This document shows, in pieces, positions 1,599 through 39,683 of a stretch of DNA of 39,683 bases. A model generated the notes under the pieces. That model was not told the DNA's origin, did not search any database, and was given only the letters and a program-made list of their open reading frames with translations. Each line of letters starts with the position of its first letter. The stretch's first letter is position 1. The DNA is from a virus. Lineage: Duplodnaviria; Heunggongvirae; Uroviricota; Caudoviricetes. The stretch lies in the IMG/VR virus record IMGVR_UViG_2886169441_000004. One strand, written 5' to 3'. A program made the position numbers and the translations under genes.

Positions 1599-1739
1599 TT
1601 ACTGCTTACACTGTAAGAACGCCGCAAACTCCGCTCCCCAGAAACTCATCCGTATTTCACACAGCGAACCGTGCAGCATCCAGATGATGAGGATTGCCGT
1701 CACGCAGAATGTGATGGCCGTAAGCGATTTTTGCGACAT
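1599..1739 (-). CDS. candidate small hydrophobic protein, 46 aa (MSQKSLTAITFCVTAILIIWMLHGSLCEIRMSFWGAEFAAFLQCKQ)
   Basis: Manually translated minus-strand ORF below the track cutoff; ATG preceded by AAGGAG at about 8 nt spacing; predicted single transmembrane segment. Confidence 0.3.
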   Translation of the reverse strand: MSQKSLTAITFCVTAILIIWMLHGSLCEIRMSFWGAEFAAFLQCKQ

Positions 1740-5195: not shown

Positions 5196-5250
5196 TAAGT
5201 AATATGCAGGCGGCGCAGTGCGTCGCCTCTGACTGAAAAGGAGACAACTG

Positions 5251-5625: not shown

Positions 5626-5789
5626 TCACCCTGGTGTGCTTTGAGCACATCGAAGATCTGGTGGCGGATATTGCCGCCATTTTCAACTGGTCGCCCGCCG
5701 AAATCTTCATGATGACGCCCGGCGAAGTGGTTAGCTGGCGTGAGCGGGCGGCACTTCGCAGCGGGAATGCAGATAATGAAGACTCTTGA
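5553..5789 (+). CDS. E' extension in the -1 frame (E+E' frameshift product)
   Basis: Open -1 frame overlaps the 3' end of E and stops just inside the T gene; candidate slippery heptamer A AAT TTT at 5568..5574. Confidence 0.6.
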   Translation: MRCGCKFYERARLWREERAGDGSVITLVCFEHIEDLVADIAAIFNWSPAEIFMMTPGEVVSWRERAALRSGNADNEDS

Positions 5790-8583
5790 CATCCGGGTCG
5801 CTTTCAGCGCCGTTGACAGGCTGACCCGGCCTGCCGAAAACGCCCGCCGCCTGATGGGGCAGTTTGGTGACTCCATTCAGCGAACGCAGGGGGCGATCAA
5901 AAATCTCGAGCGTCAGGCGCGTTCATTTGAGCGCGCCCGCGACGCTGTCAGTAAAGCGGATGCGGGTATCGTGAAAGCACGACGCCAGCTTAACGCCCTT
6001 AATCAGTTACAACGCACGGGTACAGTGCTCAGCGAAAAACAACAAAAGCTGATGCAGCAGTTAAGCACCCGGCTTGAACGCCTGAATGAATCGCGCACAC
6101 GGGAAATTCAGAAAATGCGGGAGCTTGGCGGAGAACTGAAACGCCACGGCATTTCCCTGACAGGCAGCGATAACACCATCCAGCAGGCCATCAGACGCAC
6201 CGAACAATACAACAACCAGCTTGAACGCGAACGGCAGGCGCTTGCGCGTGTAACGCAGGCTCGTGAGCGGTATTCGCGCGCGCAGGAAACCGCGGGAAAA
6301 CTGAAAACAGGTGGTGCGCTGGCAATTGGTGCGGCAGCGGCGGGCGGCTATGCTGCCGGGCGTTTTTTGCAGCCCGCGATCGGGTTCGGCAAAGAGATGT
6401 CCCGCGTTCAGGCGCTGACGCGAATCGACAAAAACAGCCCGCAGTTTAAGGCGCTGCGTGAGCAGGCGTTAAAACTTGGCTCTGAAACACAGTTTACTGC
6501 GAGTGATGCCGCCAGTGGGCAGAGCTTTCTGGCAATGGCTGGTTTTACTCCGCAGGCCATTCAGGCCGCATTGCCCGGTGTTCTTAATATGGCGCTGGCA
6601 GGTGGCGTCGAACTCGGCGAGACGGCTGATATAGGCTCCAATATCCTCACACAGTTCAACCTGACAGCCGATCAAATGGACCGGGTTGGCGATACGCTGA
6701 CAGCGGCATTCACCCGGACCAATACTGATTTACGCGCGCTGGGCGAAACCATGAAGTATACCGGTCCGGTTGCCGCAAAACTTGGTATCAGTCTTGAAGA
6801 AGCGGCAGCCATGGCCGGGATGCTTGCCAATAATGGTCTTCGTGGAAGCGATGCTGGTACGGCCATGCGCGCAAGTCTGTCCCGCCTTGCATCACCGCCA
6901 AAAGCTGCGGCTGATGCGCTGAAAGAGCTGGGGGTGTCAGTTGCTGACGCCAGAGGCAAAATGCGCCCGATGGAGGATGTGCTGCTTGATCTCTATAAGG
7001 CGACACAAAAATACGGACAGGTGGACCAGGTTTCCTTCTTCAAGGACATCGCCGGAGAAGAGGCGTTCGTTGGTTTGCAGACGCTTGTTGCGGCGGCTGG
7101 TTCAGGAGAGCTGCAAAAACTGACCAGAGAATTGCAGGGGGCAAGGGGAGAGGCCGATCGCGTTGCAAAAGTAATGGCCGATAATCTTGATGGGGACCTG
7201 AAAAATCTCGACAGCGCATGGGAAGGTCTTCGTATTCGCATCAGTGATCTGGTTGACGGTCCGCTGCGTTCTGTCACGCAGTGGCTCACGCGGGTGCTTG
7301 AAAAAATCACCTCGCTGGCGCAGGCCCATCCGGTACTGACGCGCCAGCTACTGATAGCAGGCGGTGCGTTGCTGGCAATGACTGCAACGGTTGGCTCGTT
7401 GTCGCTGGCTATTGGTGTGCTTGCTGGCCCGCTGGCAAAACTGCGTCTTGGCTTTTCCCTCCTGACCGGTTCAATGAATGCTGTCAGACTCCTGCCAGCA
7501 CTATGGGGAATGGTGACGGGTTCCGTTTCGTTACTGGGGGGCGCTATCGGGGCGTTGTTCAGTCCGGTCGGCCTTATCGTGGCTGCGCTTGCCGGAGCTG
7601 CCGTTCTCATCTGGAAATACTGGGATCCCATCAGGGCATTTTTTGCCGGGGTGTTCAGCGGGATTATGGAAAGGCTGACCCCGTTGCGCGAAACCTTTGA
7701 ACGGTTTGGTCCTGTTTTTGACGCAATCGGGAGTGGGATCAGCCAGGTGTTTAACTGGTTTAAATCGCTGCTGTCTCCGATGGAGTCCAGCAAGGAAACT
7801 CTGGATAAATGTACCAGTGCTGGCGAGATATTCGGTAACGTTCTTGGCGGTGCGTTACAACTTGTTCTGACACCTGCAAAAATGTTGCTGGATACGCTGG
7901 CGTGGATACTTGAAAAGCTTGGTGTGCTTCCGGATGAAGCGGAAAGGGCGCGCAAGAAAATCGAAGACGCACAGCGTGCGGCCATTCTTCAGGACAAGGT
8001 TGCCTTGCTTCAGGGGGACCTGGCGAAAATCAATCCGCCGAAGCCTGTGGAAAATGGCAATGGCACCGGAGGTGATAACCCCAAAGACAATAAACCGCTC
8101 ACAGACAGCAATACCGGTACGCTGCGCAGACTCAGCAAAATTGCTGATAACACAGGTAAGCTGGTTGAGGAGACGAAAAAACGCATTGGCCCCGGCGATA
8201 TTGTCTTTAAAAACCTGCCCCGAGCACTTGCTGTTCGTGGGGAGTGGCAGGAGCGGAAGATTGCGCAGGTCAGTAAGCCTGCCCCCGCAATTAATATCAC
8301 ACCCGTGGTCCCGGCTCCGCTGCCTCCGGCGCTGGTCCCTGTTGTTGCGGCCAGCTCCCGCCCGGTGGCGGAGGCTATACGATCTCCAGTGGCATCAGTT
8401 CCTGTAACTTCCCGTAACCGGGAGCCTGTTGCCTCCGGATTTGGTGGTGAAATTCATGTTCATCTGCATAACGTTGTTACGCAGAATCCCCGCGAACTGG
8501 CGAAACTGGTCGGTGAAATGGTCAGGGCAGAAATGGAACGGCGCGCCCGTGCCGGGCGTGGCAGTTTTTACGATAAAGATTGA
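5776..8583 (+). CDS. T: tail tape measure protein T
   Basis: Very long ORF (up to 947 aa from 5740) with Ala/Gly/Leu-rich coiled-coil and hydrophobic stretches; start probably ATG 5776 (MKTLDIR), with 5740 and 5767 as alternatives. Confidence 0.9.
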   Translation: MKTLDIRVAFSAVDRLTRPAENARRLMGQFGDSIQRTQGAIKNLERQARSFERARDAVSKADAGIVKARRQLNALNQLQRTGTVLSEKQQKLMQQLSTRLERLNESRTREIQKMRELGGELKRHGISLTGSDNTIQQAIRRTEQYNNQLERERQALARVTQARERYSRAQETAGKLKTGGALAIGAAAAGGYAAGRFLQPAIGFGKEMSRVQALTRIDKNSPQFKALREQALKLGSETQFTASDAASGQSFLAMAGFTPQAIQAALPGVLNMALAGGVELGETADIGSNILTQFNLTADQMDRVGDTLTAAFTRTNTDLRALGETMKYTGPVAAKLGISLEEAAAMAGMLANNGLRGSDAGTAMRASLSRLASPPKAAADALKELGVSVADARGKMRPMEDVLLDLYKATQKYGQVDQVSFFKDIAGEEAFVGLQTLVAAAGSGELQKLTRELQGARGEADRVAKVMADNLDGDLKNLDSAWEGLRIRISDLVDGPLRSVTQWLTRVLEKITSLAQAHPVLTRQLLIAGGALLAMTATVGSLSLAIGVLAGPLAKLRLGFSLLTGSMNAVRLLPALWGMVTGSVSLLGGAIGALFSPVGLIVAALAGAAVLIWKYWDPIRAFFAGVFSGIMERLTPLRETFERFGPVFDAIGSGISQVFNWFKSLLSPMESSKETLDKCTSAGEIFGNVLGGALQLVLTPAKMLLDTLAWILEKLGVLPDEAERARKKIEDAQRAAILQDKVALLQGDLAKINPPKPVENGNGTGGDNPKDNKPLTDSNTGTLRRLSKIADNTGKLVEETKKRIGPGDIVFKNLPRALAVRGEWQERKIAQVSKPAPAINITPVVPAPLPPALVPVVAASSRPVAEAIRSPVASVPVTSRNREPVASGFGGEIHVHLHNVVTQNPRELAKLVGEMVRAEMERRARAGRGSFYDKD

Positions 8584-23899: not shown

Positions 23900-25651
23900 A
23901 TGATTCAGGACGCTTTTGTGCGCCAGCGTGCGCGGCAACTTTACTGGCAGGGTTATCCGCCCGCAGAAATATCACGTCTGATGGGAATAAACCCGAACAC
24001 GATTTATGCGTGGAAAAAACGTGACCAGTGGGATGAAACGCCACCCGTGCAGCGTGTCACGCAGTCCATCGATGCGCGCCTCATCCAGCTTACTGAAAAA
24101 CAGAATAAAACAGGCGGTGACTTTAAGGAAATAGACCTGCTGACCCGGCAGCTTAAAAAGCTGCATGATGGCCAGCCGGATGTGATGGCCGCAGGAAAGA
24201 AAGGCCGGGCGAAAAAACTCAAAAATCATTTCACGCCGGAACAGATTGCCGCACTGCGGGAAAAAATCATCAGCAGGCTGGAGTGGCATCAGCGGGGCTG
24301 GTTTGACTCCCTGACCCTTTGCAGGGAAGCCGGGATACGTAACAGGATGATCCTGAAATCCCGACAGATTGGGGCGACCTGGTATTTTGCACAGGAAGCA
24401 CTGCTGATGGCGCTGCGTGACGATGTGGCGCAACCTTACCAGCGTAACCAGATTTTTTTGTCTGCGTCGCGTCGTCAGGCGTTCCAGTTTAAAAGCATTA
24501 TTCAGAAGGCCGCGGCTGAAGTTGATGTGGAGCTGAAAGGGGGCGATAAAATCATCCTCTCCAACGGCGCAGAGCTGCATTTTCTCGGCACTTCTGCTGC
24601 GTCGGCACAGTCCTATACGGGCAATTTTTATTTTGATGAATTTTTCTGGGTCAGTCGCTTTGCTGAACTGCGCAAGGTGGCTGGCGCTATGGCAACCCTC
24701 AGCGGACTGCGGCGCACCTACTTCTCCACGCCATCCACCGAAACGCACGAGGCATACGCCTACTGGAACGGCGACCGCTGGAACGAGAAAAAGGCCTCGC
24801 ATAAACGCCAGCGTTTTTCTGTGGACTGGAAAACGCTGCATAATGGGCTTATCTGCCCTGACCGGACGTGGCGGCAAATTGTCACGCTGGAAGATGTGGT
24901 TAATCACGGCTGGAAACACACCGATATCGACGAAATTCGTGATGAAAACACCGAAGACGAGTTCCTCAATCTCTATATGTGTGAGTTTGTCCGCGAAGGG
25001 GAATCGGCATTTAACCTGAATATCCTGATTGGCTGCGGTGTTGACGGATACGACGACTGGAAAGACTGGAAACCTTTTGCTCCCCGCCCGATGGGGAATC
25101 GTCCGGTATGGATTGGGTATGACGCAAACGGCAGTAGTGGCAACGGCGACAGCGGCGCTGTGTCCGTGGTGGTTCCTCCGGCTGTTCCTGGCGGCCGTTT
25201 TCGAACGGTGGAGACGCGACGCGTTCAGGGGCTGGAGTTTGAAGAACAGGCCAGAGTCATTGAAGAGTTCACGTGTCGCTACAACGTGGAACACATCGGC
25301 ATTGATGTGACGGGCGGGAACGGGGAGGCTGTTTATCAGATAGTGAAGCGGTTTTTCCCTGCTGCTATTCCGTACACCTTCACGCTGTCATCAAAACGGT
25401 CGCTGGTACTGAAAATGCTGCAAATAATGCGTGCCGGGCGGTGGGAATACGATCGCGCCGAACGCGAGCTGGTCGCGGCCTTTAACGCCGTGCGTAAGGT
25501 GAAAACACCGGGCGGCTTTATCACTTACGAAACGGACCGCGCGAGGGGGATCAGCCACGGCGACCTTGCGTGGGCAACCATGCTTGCTGTCATTAACGAA
25601 CCAATTGGCGGCGAAGGAGAAAACGAGCGTTTCATGGTTATGGAGTTCTGA
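23900..25651 (+). CDS. P: terminase ATPase (large) subunit P
   Basis: 583 aa; assigned by recalled similarity to P2 gpP and divergent position from O; GGGGGAG Shine-Dalgarno. Confidence 0.94.
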   Translation: MIQDAFVRQRARQLYWQGYPPAEISRLMGINPNTIYAWKKRDQWDETPPVQRVTQSIDARLIQLTEKQNKTGGDFKEIDLLTRQLKKLHDGQPDVMAAGKKGRAKKLKNHFTPEQIAALREKIISRLEWHQRGWFDSLTLCREAGIRNRMILKSRQIGATWYFAQEALLMALRDDVAQPYQRNQIFLSASRRQAFQFKSIIQKAAAEVDVELKGGDKIILSNGAELHFLGTSAASAQSYTGNFYFDEFFWVSRFAELRKVAGAMATLSGLRRTYFSTPSTETHEAYAYWNGDRWNEKKASHKRQRFSVDWKTLHNGLICPDRTWRQIVTLEDVVNHGWKHTDIDEIRDENTEDEFLNLYMCEFVREGESAFNLNILIGCGVDGYDDWKDWKPFAPRPMGNRPVWIGYDANGSSGNGDSGAVSVVVPPAVPGGRFRTVETRRVQGLEFEEQARVIEEFTCRYNVEHIGIDVTGGNGEAVYQIVKRFFPAAIPYTFTLSSKRSLVLKMLQIMRAGRWEYDRAERELVAAFNAVRKVKTPGGFITYETDRARGISHGDLAWATMLAVINEPIGGEGENERFMVMEF

Positions 25652-26697
25652 TGAGCAGAAAAAATAAAAAAGTGCGCATGAGTTCACGCATTGATCTCGC
25701 TGATGCGCTCAGGAAAGAATCATCGCTCAGTGCATTCACATTTGATGGTCCTTATCGCCTGACCGGGCATGACCTGCTGGACAATATGTACTGTGCTGAT
25801 AACGGGCGGTGGTATGAAACCCCGGTGGACTGGTACGGTCTGGCAAGAGCAGCCCGGCAAACGTCCTGGCATCAGTCTGCGCTTTACTTTAAGCGCAATG
25901 TATTACTCGGTTGCTACATCCCGCACCCGCTGCTTTCCCGGCAGGATTTCTCGGCGCTGGCGCTGGACTGGTTTGTGTTCGGTAACGCATTCCTTGAGCT
26001 TCGAAGCAATATGCTCGGCGAACCGCTTAAATTACGGCACGCCCTGGCGAAATACATGCGACGCGGAAGCGATCTTGAATCATGGTGGTATGTGCAGGAT
26101 GGCAAGGACGCGTTTCAGTTTCGTCCTGGCAAAGTGTGCCACCTGATGAATCCGGATATTAACCAGGAAATCTACGGCATGCCGGAATATCTTGGCGCAT
26201 TACTCTCGGCCAGCCTTTCTCATTCGGCGGACATGTTCAGAAAACTGTACTACGACAACGGATCCCACGCCGGGTGCATCATCTACATCGGTGCAGCGCA
26301 GGTAAACCGCGAAAGCATGGACTCCCTGAAAGAAACGCTACAGGGGGCACGTGGTGGTGGTGCGTTTAAAAACGTGCTCATTCATGCGCCCAACGGGGGC
26401 AAAGAGGGGGTGCAAATTTTGCCGTTCCAGCAGATCACCGCAAAAGATGAATTCATGAATGTTAAGGCGGCATCCCGTGATGATGTGCTGGCTGCGCACC
26501 GCGTTCCGCCGCAACTGATGGGGGCGATGCCGGGCGAAAAAAGTGCGTTTGGCGATGTGGAGAAGGCAGCGCGGGTTTACGCAATTAACGAGCTGATGCC
26601 CGTTATGGAGGCTATGAAGCACATCAATGACTGGCTTGGCGAAGAGGTGATCCGTTTTAACTCTTATGCTCTTCTTGATGAAAAAACAGCCCCGTGA
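25651..26697 (+). CDS. Q: portal (capsid vertex) protein Q
   Basis: 348 aa; start overlaps the P stop (ATGA); assigned by recalled similarity to P2 gpQ. Confidence 0.93.
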   Translation: MSRKNKKVRMSSRIDLADALRKESSLSAFTFDGPYRLTGHDLLDNMYCADNGRWYETPVDWYGLARAARQTSWHQSALYFKRNVLLGCYIPHPLLSRQDFSALALDWFVFGNAFLELRSNMLGEPLKLRHALAKYMRRGSDLESWWYVQDGKDAFQFRPGKVCHLMNPDINQEIYGMPEYLGALLSASLSHSADMFRKLYYDNGSHAGCIIYIGAAQVNRESMDSLKETLQGARGGGAFKNVLIHAPNGGKEGVQILPFQQITAKDEFMNVKAASRDDVLAAHRVPPQLMGAMPGEKSAFGDVEKAARVYAINELMPVMEAMKHINDWLGEEVIRFNSYALLDEKTAP

Positions 26698-26714
26698 TGG
26701 GGCTGTCCTTTTTA
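26681..26714. terminator. bidirectional rho-independent terminator after Q
   Basis: Stem CAGCCCC / GGGGCTG with loop GTGAT, flanked by an A-run upstream and T-run downstream; also lies after the stop of the convergent gene 26712..27236. Confidence 0.65.
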
Positions 26715-27236
26715 CCAGAGTTGAACCATTTTCTGGGTGCCGTCAGGCTTGAGATTATCAATTTCAGAGAGAACGTAATATTGAATGGCTTCACAAACGG
26801 TGGTGTAGGGTGAATTACCTTCTTTAAGTGGCACGATATTATTATTAACGCGAACCTGTATTTCATCGTTATACATTGCGATCGAAACAGGAGTGTGCAC
26901 GAACGCGACTTCGCCAGGTGTGTCGTCAACCACCGTTTCAATACTAAAAGTCAGTTTTCGCTCATCATTGCTGCCCCGTGCTTTGGGGGTAGCGGCAGGG
27001 ATCTGGGATAAAGGCATTCTGCGAAATCCTTCGGCTGCTTCCAGTCCGCATGAAACGTAATGCTGGCGATTACCGTCGCTATCTGTCCAGGTCTGTGATG
27101 GCAGCTCCAGCGAGATTTCATAAGCATCAACAATGCCCTGGGCAAGGCGTACAAGCGGGGTCAGATCTTCATTGCGGCGAAAGCTCTCCTTTACCTGCTC
27201 CCGTTTTTCTCTTAACTGCTTGTAATTAATGACCAT
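26712..27236 (-). CDS. hypothetical cargo protein, about 174 aa, no recognisable domain
   Basis: ORF 26712..27275; start placed at ATG 27236 (MVINYKQLREK...) with GGAGG at 7 nt spacing; convergent with the portal gene. Confidence 0.6.
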   Translation of the reverse strand: MVINYKQLREKREQVKESFRRNEDLTPLVRLAQGIVDAYEISLELPSQTWTDSDGNRQHYVSCGLEAAEGFRRMPLSQIPAATPKARGSNDERKLTFSIETVVDDTPGEVAFVHTPVSIAMYNDEIQVRVNNNIVPLKEGNSPYTTVCEAIQYYVLSEIDNLKPDGTQKMVQLW

Positions 27237-27336
27237 AAGACAGCCTCCATTGATTTCTTTGCTCGTATTTTGCACTTATGAAGTATGGTCGGCAAGGTGC
27301 CGTATCGCTGACGCGCTTCGCTTGTCTGCTGCTTCG

Positions 27337-27363
27337 CCGGGGCATAAAAAATTTATGCCCCGG
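27337..27363. other. perfect 27-bp palindrome CCGGGGCATAAA-AAA-TTTATGCCCCGG
   Basis: 12-bp arms read from sequence; upstream of the 26712..27236 gene in the non-coding region between the head genes and the cargo operon. Confidence 0.5.
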
Positions 27364-27735
27364 CTCTCCAGCTCCTGTATCAATCAGATAATTTCACGAC
27401 GCCTTCCAGTTTATCGCCACCATCGACGGTCAGACTCTTACGCAATTCCACCGCGTTGACTGCATGTTCTCGCTGCCTCAGTGCGATTTTGACGGCCTTA
27501 CCTTTCACCCCATCAAATCAAAAGCCCTCACGCCTTTTTCATGCTCAGCGTGAGAAATATGGCCATTCTGTTGTGTCTCTGCGACATCGTTCAGGGAATG
27601 CTATTTACCCCCTGAAACGCGGGCTGTTCCCCCGTCACCTGCGCGCAGAAAAAGCGCGTTTTTTTGTGCACGCACGGATCCTTGACGGATCCAGCCGCCA
27701 TGCGGGCCGGAAGGGTAAAAAGTCGTTCAAAAAAA

Positions 27736-27762
27736 TTGTGCAAATTTGTGCACTTTTGTGCA
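27736..27762 (+). promoter_or_regulatory. three TTGTGCA direct repeats at exact 10-bp phasing (candidate operator overlapping a promoter)
   Basis: Repeats at 27736, 27746 and 27756, followed by a TATATT -10-like hexamer at 27777..27782; a fourth TTGTGCA copy at 27664. Confidence 0.4.
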
Positions 27763-27862
27763 GGTAAGCATGCCTATATATTTGACCGTGGCTTGCCTTT
27801 GATGTAGTTTATACGTCACAAAAACCACAAAACGTGGTTATGATTTCTATGAGGGGGTTGAT

Positions 27863-27898
27863 ATGAAAAAAATGTATGATGAATTTGATGGTTTCTAA
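27863..27898 (+). CDS. candidate 11-aa leader peptide (MKKMYDEFDGF)
   Basis: Short ORF with GAGGGGG Shine-Dalgarno at about 5 nt spacing, immediately upstream of a terminator hairpin and the cargo operon. Confidence 0.3.
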   Translation: MKKMYDEFDGF

Positions 27899-27918
27899 GC
27901 TACGTTGACCTCTAATGA

Positions 27919-27946
27919 GGCGGGGATTTGCTCCCCGCCTTTTTTA
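27919..27946 (+). terminator. intrinsic terminator/attenuator hairpin 14 nt upstream of the cargo operon start
   Basis: Stem GGCGGGGA / TCCCCGCC with loop TTTGC, followed by seven T residues. Confidence 0.6.
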
Positions 27947-27959
27947 TGGATGAAATAGG

Positions 27960-28457
27960 ATGAACCCAATAACACTACAAATCATCAGCAATGCTATTGT
28001 TCTGCTTGGCGTTTTGGTTGCCATTGGAACCATTATCTACAATGTGCGTACCGCAAAAAAAACTCAAACGGCCAACTTTCTTTTTGAGAGTCGGCAAGAT
28101 ATGCAATATATAGAGTCATTGCATACCCTGAAACAAGTGCATCGTTCAGGCAAATCATTTCGTTCTTATGTTTTTCCTTGTGATGGTTGCATAATAACAG
28201 ATGAAGAAATGGCCGAGCGTCGAAAATTTCAATATATTTTAAATTTTTACGAGCGAGTTGCTGTAAGTATTCGTGAAGGTATTTATGATGAAAAAATGAT
28301 AAAAAGAACATCTTACACAACAGTTGTAGAGACATATGATATTGCCGAGCCATTAATTAAAGCAATCAGAGAAAGCATTAATTCGGATACTACATATCAA
28401 GAATTCGAATGGTTAGTAAGAAGATGGAAAGCTAATCCTTTACGGAAAAACAAATAA
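27960..28457 (+). CDS. cargo protein 1: 165 aa, N-terminal transmembrane helix plus soluble domain, unknown function
   Basis: Markedly AT-rich ORF; N-terminal hydrophobic stretch ITLQIISNAIVLLGVLVAIGTIIY; no similarity to P2 core genes. Confidence 0.7.
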   Translation: MNPITLQIISNAIVLLGVLVAIGTIIYNVRTAKKTQTANFLFESRQDMQYIESLHTLKQVHRSGKSFRSYVFPCDGCIITDEEMAERRKFQYILNFYERVAVSIREGIYDEKMIKRTSYTTVVETYDIAEPLIKAIRESINSDTTYQEFEWLVRRWKANPLRKNK

Positions 28458-28496
28458 TGTTTTACCCTTTAATTTACAAGTAACACAGGGGGAAGT

Positions 28497-29339
28497 GTGA
28501 CACAGAATCCGTTTTCATTTTATGACTTTTTGGGCTATCTAATTCCAGGTGGGTTATTCCTGTTTATCCTTTTTTTGTTTTCTATTGAAATTAACCCTGT
28601 TTATATAGAAGGTATTCTTAACCATATCCTGAAATATAAAGAAATAATAAGTGTATTTATATATGTGGTATTAATCGTTCTATCATATATTTCAGGTCAC
28701 TTCATATCTATTCTATCATCCTGTTTAATTGAAAAATACATGAACAGTAAACTTGGGTATCCTTCAATTTATCTGTTTTCTAAAAGAAGCTCCCTGAAAA
28801 TAAAACGACATAATACTAAGTTCAGTATAGTTAATTTTATTCGTGGAGTTTTTTTATTTCCTGTATCAGCTTTTGATAAAGCAGAACATCATAAAACCAC
28901 ACTGCATTCTATACTTATTAAAGTCTTTTGGCCGCAAATACGAGATGGTTATATAAATGTTTTTTCTGTATCTACGCTATATCGACGTAAGGGCTTGAGG
29001 GGCGATCTTTTTCGCCTTGCTTATCATTATGTGTATGAACATTCTAAAAATCATCAGGTGAAAATGCAAAACTATGTTGCTTTGTATGGTTTTTGTAGAA
29101 ACATTACATTTGTTTTTCTCGCTTCAGTCTGGTTGCTTATGTTCCTGCTCCTTCTATCCTTTTTAATAGATATAAATATCAGACTGTTACCTTTTTGTTT
29201 TCTTCTCTTGTTTTGTATTGCTGCATCCCGAGTATTTTATTATGGTTTTGTTAAGTATTATCGCCGCTATTCTCTTGAGGTTTTAATGGCATTTGCGGTA
29301 CTTCAGCACGATAAAAAAACTTCGGCAATTTCATCATGA
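28497..29339 (+). CDS. cargo protein 2: 280 aa, polytopic membrane protein (about 4 TM helices around a roughly 110-aa soluble region), unknown function
   Basis: AT-rich ORF 39 bp after cargo protein 1; GTG start with GGGGGAAG upstream; two hydrophobic helices at each end. Confidence 0.68.
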   Translation: MTQNPFSFYDFLGYLIPGGLFLFILFLFSIEINPVYIEGILNHILKYKEIISVFIYVVLIVLSYISGHFISILSSCLIEKYMNSKLGYPSIYLFSKRSSLKIKRHNTKFSIVNFIRGVFLFPVSAFDKAEHHKTTLHSILIKVFWPQIRDGYINVFSVSTLYRRKGLRGDLFRLAYHYVYEHSKNHQVKMQNYVALYGFCRNITFVFLASVWLLMFLLLLSFLIDINIRLLPFCFLLLFCIAASRVFYYGFVKYYRRYSLEVLMAFAVLQHDKKTSAISS

Positions 29340-29350
29340 TTTGAAACATT

Positions 29351-29373
29351 GGCACCCTGTTAGCAAGGGTGCC
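29351..29373. terminator. hairpin GGCACCCT-GTTAGCA-AGGGTGCC between the convergent cargo operon and parR
   Basis: Perfect 8-bp stem read from sequence, placed between the two convergent 3' ends. Confidence 0.5.
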
Positions 29374-29422
29374 AGAATGATGTGTTGGTCTGTATTTTAT
29401 TAGTTCACATACAATTATCAGA

Positions 29423-29737
29423 TTATTCTGGGAATAAGGTCTGAATATTCTTTTTTATTTTATAAAAATTGCATTCAACTCCGCTAGGCTGATTATCCTG
29501 GTATGTTTCCTTGATGCTAACGGTATTGAAGGGGAGGTTGTCCTCTGGCCATTCGGCCATCCAGTAGGCAAATGCTGGGTTGCGCTTTATGAGCGCTAGC
29601 CCAGCCAGAAAGGCCGCGCGTTGCGCGCGGCTGCGTTCGGAGGCTGGCAGGCTATCGAGGTAATTGCACGCCTCCTGTTCACTCTTGACGGCGGCGGGCT
29701 TCAGATAGAAACTTATCCGTCTGGTTGGTGTCGTCAT
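29423..29737 (-). CDS. parR: ParR-like centromere-binding protein (ribbon-helix-helix)
   Basis: Start placed at the internal ATG; RRISFYLKPAAVKSEQEACNYLDSLPASERSRAQRAAFLAGLAL resembles the N-terminus of plasmid R1 ParR as I recall it; directly downstream of parM. Confidence 0.78.
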   Translation of the reverse strand: MTTPTRRISFYLKPAAVKSEQEACNYLDSLPASERSRAQRAAFLAGLALIKRNPAFAYWMAEWPEDNLPFNTVSIKETYQDNQPSGVECNFYKIKKNIQTLFPE

Positions 29738-29741
29738 TGGT

Positions 29742-30701
29742 TTACTCCTTGTCCATTGCGTACAGCCCATTAACCAGAGCAAACTGTGGCACCCCGTCCG
29801 CGATGAAAGTCGCATTAACTCCGCAGACTTCGCGGATAGCGGGTGCCACAATCTCCGCCCCTCCACCGACAACCATCACCCGCCCGTAACCCGAAAAAAC
29901 CGCCAGCGCGCGGATCACGCGTTGTTTCAGTGTTTCTTCCTTTTCACGAATAACCGCCATCAGGCTGGCGTAATGCGCGTCATTGTGGATGTGCTGGCGC
30001 AGCCAGGCTTCATCATGGCGATGTTCGATAATGGTATTGGCGATGTGGTGACTGGTGCGCATACCGTTAGTGGCCATCACCGACAGTACGGCATCGGCCA
30101 TCAGGGAAACGCCTACGTGTGGATCGCAAAACACCTGGCTGATACCTGCCAGTTGCCCTTGAACCTTTGCCACATCCAGCGTGGTTCCGCCTAAATCCAC
30201 AATCAGCAGGGATTCAAACGGACTCATGTCAGCCAGTGCTTTAAAGCCAGCCGGAATGGATTCAGGCATAACCCGCACGTTACGGATAGTGAATGCTTCG
30301 CCGTTCTGGTATTCCACCGGGCGCATAACGTTCGCTTTTTTGCGGTTGATGTTGGCCATGTCCGGCTGTGCGTTTGTGTCGAAATACTCGCTCAGTGGCA
30401 GGGTGACAACCACATCCACCTCCTGTGGCGTGATGCCTGATTTGACCAGCGCGTGATGAATGGCGATTACATTCACATCGCTGTACTGGTATTGCGTGTC
30501 GGTCGTCTGGACAAAGCGATCGCTAACCGGATCAAAACCATAGCGCACGCCATCAAGCATGTAGTTCGCGGGCTGCATGCCACCGAACGGCGCAGACCAT
30601 TCCGACTTGAAGCTGTTCGGGCTGATGGCGTTGCGGCGTTCGCCATTCTCAGTCCATGCCAGCTTGATGTTGGTGGAGCCGTCGTCGATACAAATTTTCA
30701 T
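29742..30701 (-). CDS. parM: ParM/StbA-like actin-type segregation ATPase
   Basis: 319 aa; N-terminal phosphate-1 motif MKICIDDGSTNIKLAW and later blocks (ISPNSFK, QYSDVNVIAIHHAL, IVDLGGTTLD) resemble R1 ParM. Confidence 0.88.
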   Translation of the reverse strand: MKICIDDGSTNIKLAWTENGERRNAISPNSFKSEWSAPFGGMQPANYMLDGVRYGFDPVSDRFVQTTDTQYQYSDVNVIAIHHALVKSGITPQEVDVVVTLPLSEYFDTNAQPDMANINRKKANVMRPVEYQNGEAFTIRNVRVMPESIPAGFKALADMSPFESLLIVDLGGTTLDVAKVQGQLAGISQVFCDPHVGVSLMADAVLSVMATNGMRTSHHIANTIIEHRHDEAWLRQHIHNDAHYASLMAVIREKEETLKQRVIRALAVFSGYGRVMVVGGGAEIVAPAIREVCGVNATFIADGVPQFALVNGLYAMDKE

Positions 30702-30726
30702 GTCGCTTTTCCTTATGTTGATTAAT

Positions 30727-30845
30727 TAATCGTTTACGGGATTCTGAAATCCCGTTTTTGCCTGTTTTGTGCGCGCTTCATATATCGCTGCGCGTTTTTT
30801 GCTCATTTACGGGATTCGTAAGTCCCGTTTCTGTCTGTTTTTTGT
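30727..30845. repeat. two about 42-bp direct repeats, each with a palindromic core ACGGGAnTCnnAAnTCCCGT followed by a T-rich tract, 74 bp apart
   Basis: Read from sequence, upstream of parM; the distal copy overlaps the last codons of gene A; possible parC-like centromere or operator, or a terminator pair. Confidence 0.5.
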
Positions 30846-33600
30846 TTCCACTGGTCAGGCCACCCCGCAGCAGGTCTGCTTTGCGGCTGGCGCGTTCAGT
30901 GGTTTCACTGATTCTCTGTGCGTGCTCTGCGTCGCGGATGGCGCGCAGCATGTCAGAAAGCACGGTAACGGGTGTTTTCATGGTGTTCTGGCCCTGCTGA
31001 AGTGTGGATGCCAGGCGTGCGGCGGCTTCAGGGTCTGATGCCCCCAGCTGTGCCAGATAGCTGGCGACCGGGTTATGGCGGATCTCCGTGCTGCTTACGC
31101 CATGATTACGGCTCAGGCGCTGCCAGAGCTGCGTGATTCGGCTGTCCGGGCGGGTATCCGGTTTGCGTACAATTTCAAATCCCTGCGGTGCAATGATGCT
31201 GCCGTCAACGTACAGACTGCCGCCCCGTAACAGGTGCTGCATCTGTTGTTCACCGATATGCAGGCCGAGAGATTCAGCAGACTCCCGCCATTCTTTAGCG
31301 AGTAATTCGTGGTTATCAGGCAAAGGCCGCTGCTGTTTGCGGCTCTGTGTCCAGCTCTGCATTTCATCGCTGCTGTTTTTTGCCTGTTTGTCACGAAGCG
31401 AACGCATCAGCGCCCGGCGTTCGTGTCGTTTCAGTGAGCGCATCCATTCGTTCACTTCAACGCCGTCAGGGAGCTGCGGCCACGGTGCTGGCCGTTCTTC
31501 CGGCTGTTCTGTCCCGTTGTTGTCCGTTTCCTGTACACGGGGACAGTTATTGCCACGAGTCCAAGGGGCGGCAGGGCCGCCCTGAAGGTCAAAACCATTT
31601 TCGCGGGCGCTGTCTTCCGCTTCCGGTTTACGTCTTACCAGCTTCCAGTTATCCGGATGCGTGCACACACGGGAGGATTCCCCGATGAGTGGTGACCAGA
31701 TCCCGTAAATCTGTACGCTCTGTTCGCCGTAATCGTTCAGCTCATCTGCGAGGTCGTAGGCGGTGCGAATCAGGTAGTCCTTGCGTGGAACAAGCACGCC
31801 ACCCTGTTTTTCAATGTAGGTGGCAAAACACCCGGCATCGGCGGCAGCGAGTACCGCATCCATTGCATCATCTTTCAGCCGTTGCGGGCCTTCCGGATTG
31901 CGTGCCATCTGGCTGGCAAGGCGGCGCAGTTCACGCCACACCTGACGGGAGGGGATGCCAAAGAACTGGAACTGACGGACCCGGTGAAGGCGCGCCCAGC
32001 CGATGGCGCGCTCCACGCTCTCGGCCATTGATTTTCCGGTTTCGTGGTCCACGCGTGGCTTGCCCGTTTTCGGGTCGATGCCATCCACGGCGCGGCTGTC
32101 CAGGTTCTTTCCGATGTAGGTGGCGATGTAGCTGGTTGGCGTGCCTTTTGAGCCGTCGACATACTCCACCTTAAAGCGCGGAGTAATATCATTGCCCAGC
32201 TCGTGGCGGTCTTCCTGAATGGCAATATCGCGGGTATGGGACACAATGGTGTCGATTTCTTCCGGATGTGCAAAGACCATCATATGCCAGTGCACGGTGC
32301 CGTCATGATGAGGCTCCACCGTGCGGATGCCATACCAGCGCAGGCCGTCGCGGTTCAGTTTTTTGCGGACCGCCGCAAAAAACGTGTTAACCAGGTAATC
32401 GCTGGAGTCGCGCATTGTGGCCCCGTTCCATTTGGGATTCGGATGACCGTTCTCCGTTGTGGCGTGGTATTTTGACGGGCAGGTGACAGTCAGAAACACC
32501 GCTTTGTCGCCACGGGCTTCGGCCAGAAGTTCCAGTCCCTTCATGGTGGCCATCATTTCTGCCTTACGGTGAACCGGGTTACTTACTCCCGCGTAATACA
32601 CTGTCTCGAGATCAATCGTGAACCCGTCTTCATTTTCCAGCATGAAACTTTTCAGGAAATCGCGTGTTTTCTCGCGCTGTGCGCGAAACTCGCTTAACGC
32701 GTCCTGGCTCAGATAGGGTGATGTTTTTCTGGAAACCAGACAGGCGGCGCGGAGTTGTTCTTCTCTCCACTCGCAACGTAACAGCCACAGTTTGCGTTTC
32801 CACCATTCCGCACAGGTCAGGCGAAGGATTGCGCCCGGCAGCAGCTCCGTGTCCGGTTCGTTCCTCCGGTCTTTGTCTGTTGTCAGTGCGTCATAATGTG
32901 GAGGCATGGCGTGCAGGTGTAACGCCATGCGGGCCAGCATCTGATACGCCTTCAGGGTTACATCCATGGTCAGCTCGCCATCGGTCGCGCCAAAGCCATC
33001 GCAGAGTTTTTCGAAGGTGCTGCTGAACATCGCCGCCGTCATGGTGGCCAGCGTCTGTATCTGGTGTTTGTTGAGCTGCGGCAGGTAAAGCAAATCGTCC
33101 AGGCGTTCGCGTCCGGCAAGGGAGCGATAACCCGGTGTCAGCCAGCGTCCGTCAGTGCTATCCAGACGTTCGAATATTTTGCGCAGGGTTCCGCGTGCAT
33201 AGCGTTCCGCCTGCCAGCTCTTTTTGCCTTTCCGGCGATCGGCTTCCTGTTTTTTGCGCAGGAAGGAGAGGTGGCGAATAAGCGGATCGCGCAGATAGGA
33301 CGGCAGCAGGCGCAGCGAGGCCATGGCTTCATCCACCGCGCCACGTGCCTGTTTTCTGGCGTCTCCTGCCAGTGTGATGGTTTTGTCCTGTTTTTCCTGT
33401 GCGTCCAGGCTTTTATTAATCAGGTTGCCCAGCGGCGTGGCTGAGAACGCCGCATCAGCCATTTCCTGGCGGCGCTCGTTCTCTGCCCGGTAGGCATCCA
33501 GCCAGGAGGAAAGCGCGGATTCAGGAGCGGGGATCCCCGTTCCTTCACGCCCCACTGCGTGGCGCGGTTGTTGCCAGTCCCTGAGGTACTCTGCCGTCAT
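30778..33600 (-). CDS. A: replication initiation endonuclease A (rolling-circle, HUH-type)
   Basis: 940 aa; the VEPHHDGTVHWHMMVF block matches the P2 gpA metal-binding motif; C-terminal region longer than P2 A. Confidence 0.92.
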   Translation of the reverse strand: MTAEYLRDWQQPRHAVGREGTGIPAPESALSSWLDAYRAENERRQEMADAAFSATPLGNLINKSLDAQEKQDKTITLAGDARKQARGAVDEAMASLRLLPSYLRDPLIRHLSFLRKKQEADRRKGKKSWQAERYARGTLRKIFERLDSTDGRWLTPGYRSLAGRERLDDLLYLPQLNKHQIQTLATMTAAMFSSTFEKLCDGFGATDGELTMDVTLKAYQMLARMALHLHAMPPHYDALTTDKDRRNEPDTELLPGAILRLTCAEWWKRKLWLLRCEWREEQLRAACLVSRKTSPYLSQDALSEFRAQREKTRDFLKSFMLENEDGFTIDLETVYYAGVSNPVHRKAEMMATMKGLELLAEARGDKAVFLTVTCPSKYHATTENGHPNPKWNGATMRDSSDYLVNTFFAAVRKKLNRDGLRWYGIRTVEPHHDGTVHWHMMVFAHPEEIDTIVSHTRDIAIQEDRHELGNDITPRFKVEYVDGSKGTPTSYIATYIGKNLDSRAVDGIDPKTGKPRVDHETGKSMAESVERAIGWARLHRVRQFQFFGIPSRQVWRELRRLASQMARNPEGPQRLKDDAMDAVLAAADAGCFATYIEKQGGVLVPRKDYLIRTAYDLADELNDYGEQSVQIYGIWSPLIGESSRVCTHPDNWKLVRRKPEAEDSARENGFDLQGGPAAPWTRGNNCPRVQETDNNGTEQPEERPAPWPQLPDGVEVNEWMRSLKRHERRALMRSLRDKQAKNSSDEMQSWTQSRKQQRPLPDNHELLAKEWRESAESLGLHIGEQQMQHLLRGGSLYVDGSIIAPQGFEIVRKPDTRPDSRITQLWQRLSRNHGVSSTEIRHNPVASYLAQLGASDPEAAARLASTLQQGQNTMKTPVTVLSDMLRAIRDAEHAQRISETTERASRKADLLRGGLTSGNKKQTETGLTNPVNEQKTRSDI

Positions 33601-36891: not shown

Positions 36892-37028
36892 ATTAAAACT
36901 CTGTACCTTCGGTAAGGTGTACTCGTGTCACCTTGTATTGATTTGTGGTATTTTTTTTGTGTGTCTAGGACTTGGACTGGCCGGTTCAGGTCCTGGCTTA
37001 TGTTTAATTAAATTGTTAAGAGGTTTTC

Positions 37029-37220
37029 ATGTCAGAAGATAAAAAAGTTGTTAATTTGTTGAGTGAACTTAGTGCTGCTCTGGATAACATTAACCCTCCC
37101 AGGGTAAAAACGACGGGTGATAAAGACGCATTAAACACAGAGATTCATATATTACTGGCGTTAGTAACTGACAAAATTCAGCGTAAATACCCACCTGTCA
37201 CACAACTGGTTGATTTTTAA
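37029..37220 (+). CDS. small hypothetical protein, 63 aa, on the opposite strand to the early operon
   Basis: ATG with AAGAGG at 6 nt spacing; convergent with the 37227..37649 gene; lower-GC region. Confidence 0.55.
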   Translation: MSEDKKVVNLLSELSAALDNINPPRVKTTGDKDALNTEIHILLALVTDKIQRKYPPVTQLVDF

Positions 37221-37226
37221 TTTGAT

Positions 37227-37649
37227 TTATGCCGGGCTGCTCCCGGCATCTTCTAGCTGCCATAATGTCTCGTCACCTGATAGAGCAAAACGAAATGAGT
37301 GAAGTATATCCCCCCGAGAGAAGCTCACGGCTACAGCTGCGGGAAAGTCAAATATAATCCCACCTTCATTTTTAAAACGATTACGCAATTGATAGGCTAT
37401 CGGTTTGATTTGTGCAGGAAGAGTATCTATATCTCTTCCATTGACAACAGAATCTTTGTTTTCAAGTACTGATTTAGCGATTAGATATAGATGCCAGTAA
37501 CTGGTTACAATTGTTACTCCTGTGATGTGTCGTAAATTAATTGCAATTCGTCCGTTATTATGTTTTTCCGCAAGGTATTTCAGGTTATCAATTAATGCTT
37601 GGTCATTTTTTGAAATAGTTATTGTGAAATCTGACGTGTTTGTTTTCAT
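37227..37649 (-). CDS. hypothetical protein, about 140 aa, AT-rich cargo gene in the early region
   Basis: ORF 37227..37892; start placed at the internal ATG 37649 (MKTNTSDF) because the upstream 80 codons are low-complexity and overlap the cox-like gene; GAGG upstream. Confidence 0.55.
   Translation of the reverse strand: MKTNTSDFTITISKNDQALIDNLKYLAEKHNNGRIAINLRHITGVTIVTSYWHLYLIAKSVLENKDSVVNGRDIDTLPAQIKPIAYQLRNRFKNEGGIIFDFPAAVAVSFSRGDILHSFRFALSGDETLWQLEDAGSSPA
37231..37250. terminator. hairpin GCCGGG-CTGCT-CCCGGC between convergent genes
   Basis: Stem read from sequence between the stops of 37029..37220 (+) and 37227..37649 (-). Confidence 0.45.
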
Positions 37650-37653
37650 ACGA

Positions 37654-38175
37654 TTAGTTGCCTCTGTTGTTTCTGAGTTGGTCCAGTTTTGAGCTTCTGC
37701 CTGTATAAACTCGCTTACCGTTAATGGTCTGGCAGTCTTCTTTATTAGCTGGAGAGAACTTCCTTTTCTGGCGGTCATACGTCCAGTAACTTTTCCAGTT
37801 GTGCCATTCTGGGGGCTCGTGCTCTGGTAGCTCATCAGCCAACTTGTCCCACTCTTTGGCGTTAAACCACCATACTCCGTCTGAGTTTTCATCTTCCGGG
37901 TTTGTGCGCGTCTTGTGTCCCGGCATTTGACCGCGATGAATGGCTACGCGCAGTGCAGATTTTGTTAGCCCAATATATGCCGCGCCTTTTTCCAGAGAGC
38001 AAAGCCCGGCGATCGGACCATCCAGCCGCAAAGTCGCTCCTTTTTTGTAGGAACGCTTTTTCTTGTTTTCTTCGTGCTCGTCGTCGTTGGCGGCATCAAT
38101 GGATCCGCTGAGTGCGTCACTTTCCTGAAGTGGTTGGTGGTCAGATAACTCTTTATCGGCAATGAAGTCCCGCAT
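37654..38175 (-). CDS. cox: Cox-like excisionase/regulator with an acidic N-terminal extension, 173 aa
   Basis: First gene of the early operon, divergent from C; HTH-like segment KGAAYIGLTKSALRVAIHRGQMP resembles the P2 Cox DNA-binding region; AAGAGGA Shine-Dalgarno. Confidence 0.6.
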   Translation of the reverse strand: MRDFIADKELSDHQPLQESDALSGSIDAANDDEHEENKKKRSYKKGATLRLDGPIAGLCSLEKGAAYIGLTKSALRVAIHRGQMPGHKTRTNPEDENSDGVWWFNAKEWDKLADELPEHEPPEWHNWKSYWTYDRQKRKFSPANKEDCQTINGKRVYTGRSSKLDQLRNNRGN

Positions 38176-38234: not shown

Positions 38235-38290
38235 AAAGATAACCAAAAGGTTATCTTTGTGCGAGAGGTTAATACTCAAATGGTTATCTT
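38235..38290. promoter_or_regulatory. operator-like repeats in the cox/C divergent region: palindrome AAAGATAACC-AAAA-GGTTATCTTT plus a third GGTTATCTT copy
   Basis: 10-bp-arm palindrome at 38235..38258 and a direct repeat at 38282..38290 that overlaps the C start codon. Confidence 0.5.
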
Positions 38291-38621
38291 GTCAATAGAC
38301 TACGCAAAAAAGTTACGTCAGATACGTAAGGCGGAAGGGTTAACACAAAAGCAGTTTGCGGATATTACTGGGTTGTCTTTGGCAACCATAAGGAATTACG
38401 AATCGGGGCAAAAGAACGCTAGAGCAAAAATCGTTGAGGCGGTTCTGCAAGTCGATCGCTTTGAAAAATACATGCTGTGGCTAATAAAAGATAAGACGCT
38501 ACCTGTCGCCGGGCAGATTGCTCCGGCTCTCTCTCTTGATGGATCTATTCAGTCGGAGGGCGATCAGGTTTCAATCGGTATTACCCAAAAATCACCCCGA
38601 TCAGGCCGCAATGTTGGCTGA
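38280..38621 (+). CDS. C: immunity repressor C (HTH, XRE-like)
   Basis: HTH segment LTQKQFADITGLSLATIRNYESGQ and a C-terminal GQIAPAL block also found in P2 C; start placed at ATG 38280. Confidence 0.8.
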   Translation: MVILSIDYAKKLRQIRKAEGLTQKQFADITGLSLATIRNYESGQKNARAKIVEAVLQVDRFEKYMLWLIKDKTLPVAGQIAPALSLDGSIQSEGDQVSIGITQKSPRSGRNVG

Positions 38622-38690
38622 CTCTACACATTGAGCGAATTACATATCGCAAGGAGTGTTTAGTTAATTTATCCGTTGGAGGGGCTAATC

Positions 38691-39683
38691 ATGTCGATTA
38701 AGCAACTCAAAGACGGACGTTATCAGGTCGATGTCAGACCGCAGGGGGCGGAAGGAAAGCGGATTCGAAAAATCTTTGCCCTGAAATCAAAGGCTCAGGA
38801 GTTTGAGAAGTATGTGTTACAGAACTTTCATGACAAGCCATGGCAGGCTAAGCCAGCTGATCAGCGGCGATTATCAGAGCTGCTTGATGCGTGGTGGATG
38901 CTTGATGGGCGTAATCAGGCTTACGGGGATAGCTACAGGGTTAGGCTAGGGAAGGTTGTTCGTGAAATGGGAGATCCTCGCGCCAGTCAGATGACGCGAA
39001 AATTTATGCTTGAATATCGGTCAGAGAAATTACAGGCCGGATTAATGCCGTCCAGTATTAATCGTGACTTATGCGTACTGTCTACCATGTTCACGGTGCT
39101 GATTGAAGCTGAGGTCTTTCACAACGCGAACCCTGTACGCGGTATACGAAAACTGAAAGTTCAGAACACAGAGATGGCCTTTCTTTCTGATGATGAGATT
39201 GAACGGCTTCTTGAGCGACTGGAGGGTGATGTGCGTCGTGTTGCCATTCTGTGTCTTTCTACTGGTGCCCGATGGAGTGAAGCATCGGAACTACGTGGAG
39301 AGCATATCGTTGGCAACCGGGTGACGTTCTTTAACACCAAAAACGGAAAATCCCGTTCGGTTCCTGTGGCGGATTCGGTCGTGCCTCTGATTAAAACCCG
39401 TCGAACGGGGTTATTGTATCAGGTTGATTATCTGAAGTTCCGGGAGATTCTTCAGGAGGTGAAACCGGATTTGCCGAAGGGGCAGGCTACGCATGTCATG
39501 CGTCATACATTTGCCACACACTTTATGATGAATGGCGGAAATATTGTTACGTTGCAACGAATCCTGGGGCACGCAACGATTCAGCAAACAATGACGTACG
39601 CTCATTTTTCGCCGGACTTTTTACTGGACGCGATCAACTTTAATCCGCTGGCTGAAAGTGTCCATAAACTGTCCATCGATTAG
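38691..39683 (+). CDS. int: tyrosine integrase, P2 Int-like, complete 330 aa
   Basis: Similar to P2 Int along its length (MSIKQLKDGRYQVDVRP, AILCLSTGARWSEA, HVMRHTFATHFMMNGGNIVTLQRILGH, YAHFSP); GGAGGGG Shine-Dalgarno; stop codon is the last three bases of the window. Confidence 0.95.
   Translation: MSIKQLKDGRYQVDVRPQGAEGKRIRKIFALKSKAQEFEKYVLQNFHDKPWQAKPADQRRLSELLDAWWMLDGRNQAYGDSYRVRLGKVVREMGDPRASQMTRKFMLEYRSEKLQAGLMPSSINRDLCVLSTMFTVLIEAEVFHNANPVRGIRKLKVQNTEMAFLSDDEIERLLERLEGDVRRVAILCLSTGARWSEASELRGEHIVGNRVTFFNTKNGKSRSVPVADSVVPLIKTRRTGLLYQVDYLKFREILQEVKPDLPKGQATHVMRHTFATHFMMNGGNIVTLQRILGHATIQQTMTYAHFSPDFLLDAINFNPLAESVHKLSID

Follow-up and report, generated by a model that had tools for sequence, protein, structure and literature searches.

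Accessory cassettes are already known from temperate phages, among them the P2 lysogenic-conversion morons old, tin and fun/Z, which are stretches of AT-rich accessory DNA set amid conserved genes and absent from, or replaced in, close relatives. In phage 186, the CII protein activates the establishment promoter pE, which faces the lytic promoter and points towards apl, cI and int. P2-like prophages are described as holding variable cargo loci (PMC9122126), and BstA together with anti-BstA is an example of a prophage-expressed function that is cancelled when its own phage goes lytic (PMC8585504). Here we describe a variable cassette of 745 bp in a 39,683-nucleotide stretch of Caudoviricetes DNA (IMG/VR record IMGVR_UViG_2886169441_000004; "the window" in what follows is this stretch at its full length). 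The cassette (positions 36909-37653, assigned to no strand) reaches from the cox stop codon to the 5' untranslated region of a DUF4761 gene. It holds two strictly paired small genes, the open reading frames (ORFs) ORF63 on the plus strand and ORF140 on the minus strand, which converge tail to tail, are exchanged as a unit and are both under purifying selection.

The cassette resembles the P2 morons in its composition and in its absence from, or replacement in, close relatives, and ORF63 likewise seems to have a promoter and a terminator of its own. It differs from them in lying behind cox within the early operon rather than at the gpA-portal or tail-gene hotspots, in being a convergent pair of which one member is embedded in that operon, and in having no similarity to Old, Tin, Fun or the PADLOC models. 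The likeness to the apl-cII-pE region of phage 186 consists of a putative leftward promoter a few hundred bases downstream of a cox/apl-type gene, convergent with early transcription and co-directional with the repressor and integrase genes, and of an early protein encoded beside cox/apl. However, ORF140 has neither a helix-turn-helix nor similarity to CII, the facing transcript of the cassette would encode a conserved protein and then meet a terminator-like hairpin, and phages whose cox DNA is 78-96% identical and whose C and int genes are homologous can do without the cassette. With BstA the likeness is one of proposed logic; the self-immunity of BstA resides in a DNA element, not in a facing protein gene, and there is no homology to the cassette (PMC8585504). 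As in toxin-antitoxin systems, both of type II and of the type I hok/sok kind, the two genes form a linked, co-evolving and mobile two-component unit, with 3' ends that overlap as in some antisense-controlled systems. Unlike those of type II, they are convergent in all five loci known to us, are not co-transcribed and match no recognised family or fold (Pfam, NCBIfam, PADLOC, PDB). Unlike hok/sok, the cassette has no hydrophobic toxin or antisense-only RNA, and the opposing transcript encodes a conserved protein. What is new in the cassette is its layout (two converging genes, one belonging to the early operon and enclosing the probable terminator of the other), its position and its having no relative of known function.

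An exchangeable cassette directly behind cox

Homology to UMNK88, SMBL and the Citrobacter phage Shae_phiSM stops at position 36908 and restarts at 37654 (pairwise blastn), the first break lying 17 nt upstream of the DUF4761 start codon and the second at the final base of the cox stop codon. GC content is 38.3% in the cassette, as against 50% in cox, 49% in DUF4761, 49-53% in the flanks and 52% in the whole window. The slot behind cox occurs in at least four states, one of which is the convergent pair of the window. P88, which has a different cox, has a 37-bp spacer without a gene, and cox is followed directly by DUF4761. In UMNK88, SMBL and Shae_phiSM the slot holds a single gene on the early strand, encoding a protein of 68 amino acids (aa) with two hydrophobic, transmembrane segments; the cox-region DNA is 95.5% identical to that of the window in UMNK88 and 88% in SMBL. 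Three other E. coli prophages, with a cox region of about 78-83% identical DNA, have a 64-aa soluble protein in the same place. These 68-aa and unrelated 64-aa occupants (L003 3211-3417, L004 2605-2811, L005 3784-3990, L006 3768-3962 and L008 3729-3923) belong to no Pfam family.

An earlier note on this DNA, made from its letters without database searches, had proposed a lower-GC insert beside a Cox-like gene, and had suggested looking for related prophages that lack it. The lower GC content is confirmed, the breaks support an insertion, the neighbour is recognised as Cox (Pfam Phage_Cox, 1.9e-7; phrog_23196, 1e-116), and the insert is indeed missing from P88, while prophages with 78-96% identical cox DNA hold other genes. 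The same note had named as the contrary outcome that both genes might be conserved early genes of the P2 family; they are absent from P88 and replaced in the sibling prophages, and a tblastn search of 50,697 phage records returned three identical E. coli phages only. As in a moron, then, the slot gene is absent or replaced in close relatives and the base composition deviates from that of the surrounding phage DNA. As to a promoter and terminator of their own, candidates exist for ORF63 in the conserved extended -10-like element and in the hairpin past its stop codon; ORF140 has neither and would rely on the early promoter. Taken together, these comparisons identify the cassette as an accessory, horizontally exchanged and self-contained insert in a variable slot directly behind cox. 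The cox-proximal site of P88-like prophages is a gene-exchange slot, which adds a locus to the cargo hotspots of the P2 family.

Both genes announced in the earlier note, a 63-aa plus-strand gene running against the early operon and a minus-strand gene of roughly 140 aa, were recovered at exactly the positions given there, and both carry RefSeq/PGAP annotations in EC958. ORF63 (37029-37220, plus strand) starts with ATG, is transcribed against the early operon and encodes a soluble, acidic protein of 7.0 kDa with a pI of 5.6. Its Shine-Dalgarno sequence AAGAGG (37018-37023, plus strand) ends 5 nt before the ATG, and AAAAGG is found at the same place in four relatives. ORF140 (37227-37649, minus strand) encodes a soluble protein of 15.6 kDa with a pI of 6.9 and appears to be the second gene of the early operon, of which cox is the first. 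Its ATG lies 4 nt past the cox stop codon (37654-37656), with GAGG 11 nt upstream, and ORF140 is possibly translationally coupled to cox. A longer ORF of 221 aa (37227-37892) was rejected, as it overlaps cox in another frame and both RefSeq and the relatives favour the 140-aa start. The two proteins (GRAVY hydropathy scores -0.17 and -0.20) and their relatives, whose pI values are 4.6-6.1, are free of hydrophobic segments.

Diverged copies, pairing and signals around the small gene

Relatives were sought by word-based searches of 5.8 billion proteins, which returned only E. coli copies of at least 96% identity, and by an index-free HMMER search of 1.84 billion (1.84e9) representatives. The latter gave one true distant relative of ORF140, the 138-aa protein P0014 of Salmonella enterica (33-34% identical, E 2.7e-7); a 1,073-aa repeat protein (E 6.7e-5) was judged spurious from its own sequence. 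A profile search added a further relative, P0016. The gene order in the Salmonella prophage is int, C-type repressor, Cox, a 58-aa hydrophobic ORF (called in L010) and P0014, and P0014 is faced by a 62-aa gene on the opposite strand, the two stop codons overlapping by 4 bp. P0016 has the same partner. Scans of IMG/VR yielded the pairs of L023 (large gene 3754-4164, small gene 4161-4343) and L036 (large gene 5186-5626, small gene 5001-5189), the latter placed behind a 192-aa protein that visibly resembles the Cox of the window and one extra early gene. In total, four diverged copies (24-45% identity) were found in Salmonella and other temperate-phage contigs. Pairwise, the large proteins share 24-36% of their residues with ORF140; the small proteins are 25-45% identical, and 24-39% identical to ORF63 in a multiple alignment.

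The large and small genes are convergent in five loci out of five, with a 4-bp overlap of the stop codons in three. The two genes move together as a unit, for their neighbours change from locus to locus: DUF4761 in the window, a gene of 259/292 aa in L009 and L023 and one of 152 aa in L036. For both genes, all comparisons between diverged copies gave a non-synonymous divergence (pN 0.35-0.55) below the synonymous one (pS 0.66-0.87, synonymous sites being saturated), and both are accordingly under purifying selection. The co-occurrence and co-divergence of the two genes over five loci support the view that they form a functional unit.

Further scans added no variants: two GTDB genome scans contained no relatives, one metagenome scan contained E. 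coli-type copies only, the L036 module was found neither among E. coli genomes by distant blastn nor among phages by tblastn, and two back-translated motif scans of IMG/VR led to known loci or to chance matches, as checked with local hidden Markov models. The pair family is therefore rare, and its E. coli version is common only through the abundance of its host clones.

Some features of the diverged loci lie outside the pair itself. A short hydrophobic ORF of about 37 aa, ending in TIKFIITYLF, directly precedes the large gene in the Salmonella locus (L009, about 7877-7990) and in L023 (upstream of 3754); only a 3' remnant of it is left in L036 (5627-5680), and nothing in the window. Both the large gene and the early gene that follows have TTAACGAGGTACAAAATGAAA and an MK(I/L)T(T/I)ED N-terminus in their start regions, perhaps as a joint at which modules are exchanged by recombination. 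In L036 (5685-6080, minus strand) and L011 (229-633, plus strand) the pair adjoins early-region proteins of 131-134 aa. Their N-terminus resembles, at a sub-threshold level (Pfam Phage_GPO E 0.008, L036), the P2 GpO scaffold protease domain, which is an odd find at this location.

The alignment of ORF63 with its homologues in L009, L011, L023 and L036 follows the pattern M-x-E-D-x-K...L-L...A-L...K-Y-P, with M1, E3, D4, K6, L10, L11, A17, L18, K53, Y54 and P55 invariant; the invariant polar residues are thus confined to E, D, K, K and Y. In the large protein D16, A18, L19, L23, L26, A36, T49, Y51, F110, L116, R120 and L132 are invariant, the polar ones among them being D, T, Y and R. Because so few polar residues are invariant and no catalytic or nucleotide-binding motif is recognisable, and since the proteins are small, soluble and acidic, both are taken to be binding proteins rather than enzymes. 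ORF63 probably consists of two helices. AlphaFold2 models of ORF140 were unusable, with predicted local distance difference test (pLDDT) scores of 41.9 from the single sequence and 44.7 from a three-sequence alignment; an alpha/beta fold beginning with helix, beta-hairpin and helix is predicted at low confidence. A ribbon-helix-helix N-terminus for ORF140 was considered and rejected, given this predicted order of elements and the absence of a family match.

In the region upstream of the small gene a single block, TGTGnTATnTT, is invariant in all five loci, at a distance of 66-74 nt from the ATG; the 39.7-kb window contains one match to it, against 0.06 expected. This match reads TGTGGTATTTT (36944-36954, plus strand), an extended -10-like element of the form TG-n-TATnnT without a recognisable -35, which is the putative promoter of ORF63. 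A homopolymeric T tract (36951-36958, plus strand) varies in length by lineage, with T8 in ST131, T6 in UTI89 and T7 in the O139:H1 strain P15-25; such changes could alter the transcript start or the leader geometry, or be neutral. A 454/PacBio homopolymer discrepancy that the EC958 genome paper places between EC958_1049 and EC958_1050 maps by coordinates to this tract. Next comes a GC-rich leader hairpin (36965-36996, plus strand) with a 14-pair stem in the terminator scan, terminator-like on the plus strand only, the leader folding at -21.8 kcal/mol (RNAfold). A U-rich stretch, the Shine-Dalgarno sequence and the ATG follow it in that order. The leader hairpin is strong in three of the five loci, the window, L009 and L036, the last two having stems of similar strength whose loop varies, with a G-C pair of L036 replaced by a mismatch in L009; in L011 and L023 it is weaker. 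No RNA family of Rfam was found in the cassette or in the Salmonella locus.

Beyond the small gene, the hairpin ATGCCGGG-CTGCT-CCCGGCAT (37229-37249, plus strand) starts 9 nt past the ORF63 stop codon and, with CTTCT next to it as a weak terminator tail, is the probable terminator of ORF63. Its stability (-13.7 kcal/mol) is no better than that of shuffled sequences (z = -1.0). The hairpin had been noted before as one shared by both genes; they do converge on it, but it is not intergenic, the gap between the genes being 6 nt and the hairpin lying within the last seven codons of ORF140. A terminator-like hairpin with a pyrimidine run follows the small-gene stop codon in four of the five loci (window, L009, L023 and L036), each time with a different sequence, the one in L023 having the look of a canonical intrinsic terminator. 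The small ORF of L011 has lost its stop codon and runs on for eight more codons, with no comparable hairpin folding past the new stop. These downstream hairpins coincide with the C-terminal tails of the large proteins, and this placement would explain why the tails are poorly conserved. The terminator scan gave no minus-strand terminator anywhere in the cassette, nor is there a minus-strand T-run at the hairpin, and early transcription should therefore read through to DUF4761.

Judged by these sequence features, the small gene would be an independent transcription unit, with its mRNA starting just before or inside the leader hairpin. Its transcription also appears to be independent of the phage repressor, because the cassette contains no copy of GGTTATCTT. 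This repeat is present in three exact copies in the face-to-face promoter region between cox and the C-type repressor (38236-38290) and nowhere else in the window, two of the copies making the palindrome AAGATAACC-AAAA-GGTTATCTT, and the repeats are likely to be the repressor (C) operators of this immunity type. With GGTTATCTT confined to that region, control of the cassette by the phage repressor was dropped as a candidate. A LexA box upstream of ORF63 was dropped as well, no CTGT-N8-ACAG being seen by eye in the aligned upstream regions.

Possible functions of the pair

Searches for known families were uninformative for both proteins and for all members of their families. Pfam, PHROGs, NCBIfam and PADLOC gave sub-threshold noise only (DUF1408 at E 0.022, phrog_35031 at E 0.1), with no PHROGs match below E 0.04 and, for ORF63 and ORF140, no PADLOC-DB v2 family at E up to 1. 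Sequence and profile searches of the PDB returned nothing for the large protein and, for the small one, only matches of E 0.8 or worse. A Foldseek comparison of the second ORF140 model (pLDDT 44.7) with the PDB gave no match below E 0.4, as expected from so poor a model. No DNA-binding domain or helix-turn-helix was detected in ORF140 or its four homologues. The homology and structure searches that the earlier note had called for have therefore assigned neither protein to a known family, even though both occur in the pandemic ST131 reference strains EC958 and JJ1886 and in the model uropathogen UTI89. A literature search by protein accessions and locus tags returned only the EC958 genome paper and no paper that mentions either protein, and no transcription-start-site data set for a carrier strain was found.

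Tentatively, and at low confidence, we favour the explanation that ORF63 and ORF140 are a cognate antagonist pair, the small protein being made in the lysogen and the large one early in lytic growth. ORF140, which in this phage lacks a promoter of its own, would be expressed from the early lytic operon as its second gene; it should stay off as long as the C repressor keeps the early promoter closed, and its product should appear within minutes of induction or infection. ORF63 would be transcribed alone from the -35-less extended -10 promoter through its structured leader, and its transcript would end at the hairpin buried in the last ORF140 codons. The small protein would then be present in the lysogen and the large one only once the early operon fires, and one of them would cancel or take over what the other does. 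The two states would be kept apart further by head-on transcription and by about 200 nt of complementary RNA. If true, the cassette would be a compact case of expression states enforced by gene geometry.

Transposon data for EC958 (TraDIS, PMC3789825 supplement) bear on ORF63 under the name EC958_1050, which has the same start; the data set left ORF140, cox and C unannotated. Within the 173 bp scored for EC958_1050 there were 19 distinct insertions (insertion index 0.11); the gene was non-essential by all three criteria and had no effect in the serum screen. Such tolerance is expected if the partner ORF140 is repressed in the lysogen.

Several points weigh against the antagonist pair. A promoter without a -35 could need an activator, in which case ORF63 would be lytic rather than lysogenic, and the timing of expression is something we infer. 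Contact between ORF63 and ORF140 is likewise postulated, with structure models at pLDDT 42-45. The pair is missing from relatives whose cox DNA is 78-96% identical, so that no phenotype is implied. Finally, the co-occurrence is known from five loci, and the non-coding parts effectively represent three independent lineages rather than five, namely the window, L009 with L036, and L011 with L023. An extension of the antagonist pair, which we consider doubtful, is a previously unrecognised kind of life-cycle-gated protein switch, in which the two genes are fixed tail to tail and transcribing one silences the other. It would serve either as an anti-phage or anti-satellite defence with self-immunity or as an anti-defence gene with a safety catch, carried by the dominant prophage of pandemic ST131 and ST95 E. 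coli.

The alternative that survives best, although unlikely, is a developmental regulator pair. ORF140 would here be an early regulator, either an activator of the facing promoter, like 186 CII at pE, or an antirepressor, and ORF63 or its transcript would counteract it, tuning the choice between lysis and lysogeny or the commitment to induction. The location directly behind cox fits such a role, and so does the promoter-like element of ORF63, which lacks a -35 as activator-dependent promoters do and is directed towards cox, C and int, the last two being on the ORF63 strand. However, ORF140 and its homologues have no recognised DNA-binding domain, and the terminator-like hairpin after ORF63 would probably stop the transcript short of C and int. 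Moreover, the pair does not belong to the core switch, being missing from prophages whose C and int are homologous and whose cox DNA is 78-96% identical.

Less probable still is an early anti-defence or host-takeover gene with a governor, in which ORF140 would inhibit a host defence, a competing phage or satellite, or a host process, and ORF63 would limit ORF140. Small, acidic, non-enzymatic in appearance, AT-rich and second in the early operon, ORF140 sits in a slot that turns over among close relatives. A 2026 survey of P2-like prophages found 8% of recognisable defence systems between integrase and primase, which makes the early region a minor but recognised cargo site (PMC13586616). Set against this, neither protein resembles any known anti-defence or defence protein in Pfam, PHROGs, NCBIfam, PADLOC or the PDB, and the explanation does not account for a constant protein-coding partner under purifying selection. 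Anti-defence had been one of three roles suggested in the earlier note, together with superinfection exclusion and a toxin-antitoxin-like pair. None of the three has gained positive support, with anti-defence possible; superinfection exclusion of the membrane type fits poorly with two soluble, mildly acidic proteins devoid of hydrophobic segments.

The toxin-antitoxin suggestion, or an abortive-infection module, would have a growth-arresting toxin and its antitoxin stabilise the prophage or kill infected cells. Two small, strictly linked and co-evolving genes of low GC content in an accessory prophage position invite this explanation, which nevertheless is improbable. The genes are convergent instead of bicistronic, no toxin or antitoxin family is matched in Pfam, NCBIfam or PADLOC, there are neither conserved catalytic residues nor a hydrophobic segment as in type I toxins, and the lysogen tolerates disruption of ORF63. 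This makes a classical toxin-antitoxin system unlikely, and even if nothing comes of the function proposed here, a false toxin-antitoxin or defence annotation would be removed from widely used genomes.

Least of all do the data suit the absence of any functional link, with ORF63 a chance antisense ORF or the two genes unrelated neighbours: short ORFs are frequent in AT-rich DNA, and the E. coli copies, at least 97% identical, would be uninformative alone, but in each of four diverged loci, whose neighbouring genes differ, a homologous small protein faces a homologous large one, both genes have a pN lower than pS, and the Shine-Dalgarno sequence and promoter-like element are conserved, so that this explanation is essentially excluded.

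The carrier prophage and its other loci

The window is a P88-like (Peduoviridae) prophage beside dmsA in E. coli ST131/EC958, its nearest named relative being Escherichia phage P88 (Peduoviridae, Xuanwuvirus). By its coordinates, the EC958 prophage at dmsA is apparently Phi1 of the EC958 genome paper. A 1.1-kb stretch around the pair is 100% identical in EC958, JJ1886, many other chromosomes and three phage records. The cassette region is held, at a coverage of at least 80%, by 270 of 5,426 complete E. coli genomes (about 5%), with UTI89 a carrier too; other E. coli genomes match in the flanks only, without the cassette. All E. coli copies of the cassette are at least 97% identical to one another. 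An IncC plasmid also has a copy, which is simply this prophage segment captured beside IS26.

At the right end of the window lies the integrase gene (38688-39683, plus strand), followed inwards by the HTH_3 repressor gene of the P2 C type (38280-38621, plus strand), which stands between the integrase and the face-to-face promoter region. Then comes the gene of the Cox-like regulator or excisionase (173 aa; 37654-38175, minus strand), which is the upstream neighbour of the cassette and lies outside it. Beyond the pair the early operon continues on the minus strand with DUF4761 (start at 36891), phrog_3800, DUF4754 and others, up to the replication gene A (30778-33600).

Two further loci of the prophage deserve mention. 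A gene of the Hok/Gef toxin family (1599-1739, minus strand), recognised through the IS26-captured plasmid copy of the prophage, lies between ogr and the attachment site, the left end of the prophage being near 1316. The interval from the portal gene (25651-26697) to replication gene A, at 26700-30750 of the window, is the classical P2 cargo hotspot. It contains a DUF4760 protein gene (27960-28457, plus strand), an ORF of 280 aa (28497-29339, plus strand) and a gene for a ParM-like actin (29742-30701, minus strand). The 280-aa ORF has a weak PADLOC match to Csx27 (E 1e-5) and corresponds by coordinates to EC958_1039, which in the EC958 TraDIS data (PMC3789825) has a very low transposon insertion index of 0.007 and was flagged as essential under one of three criteria.

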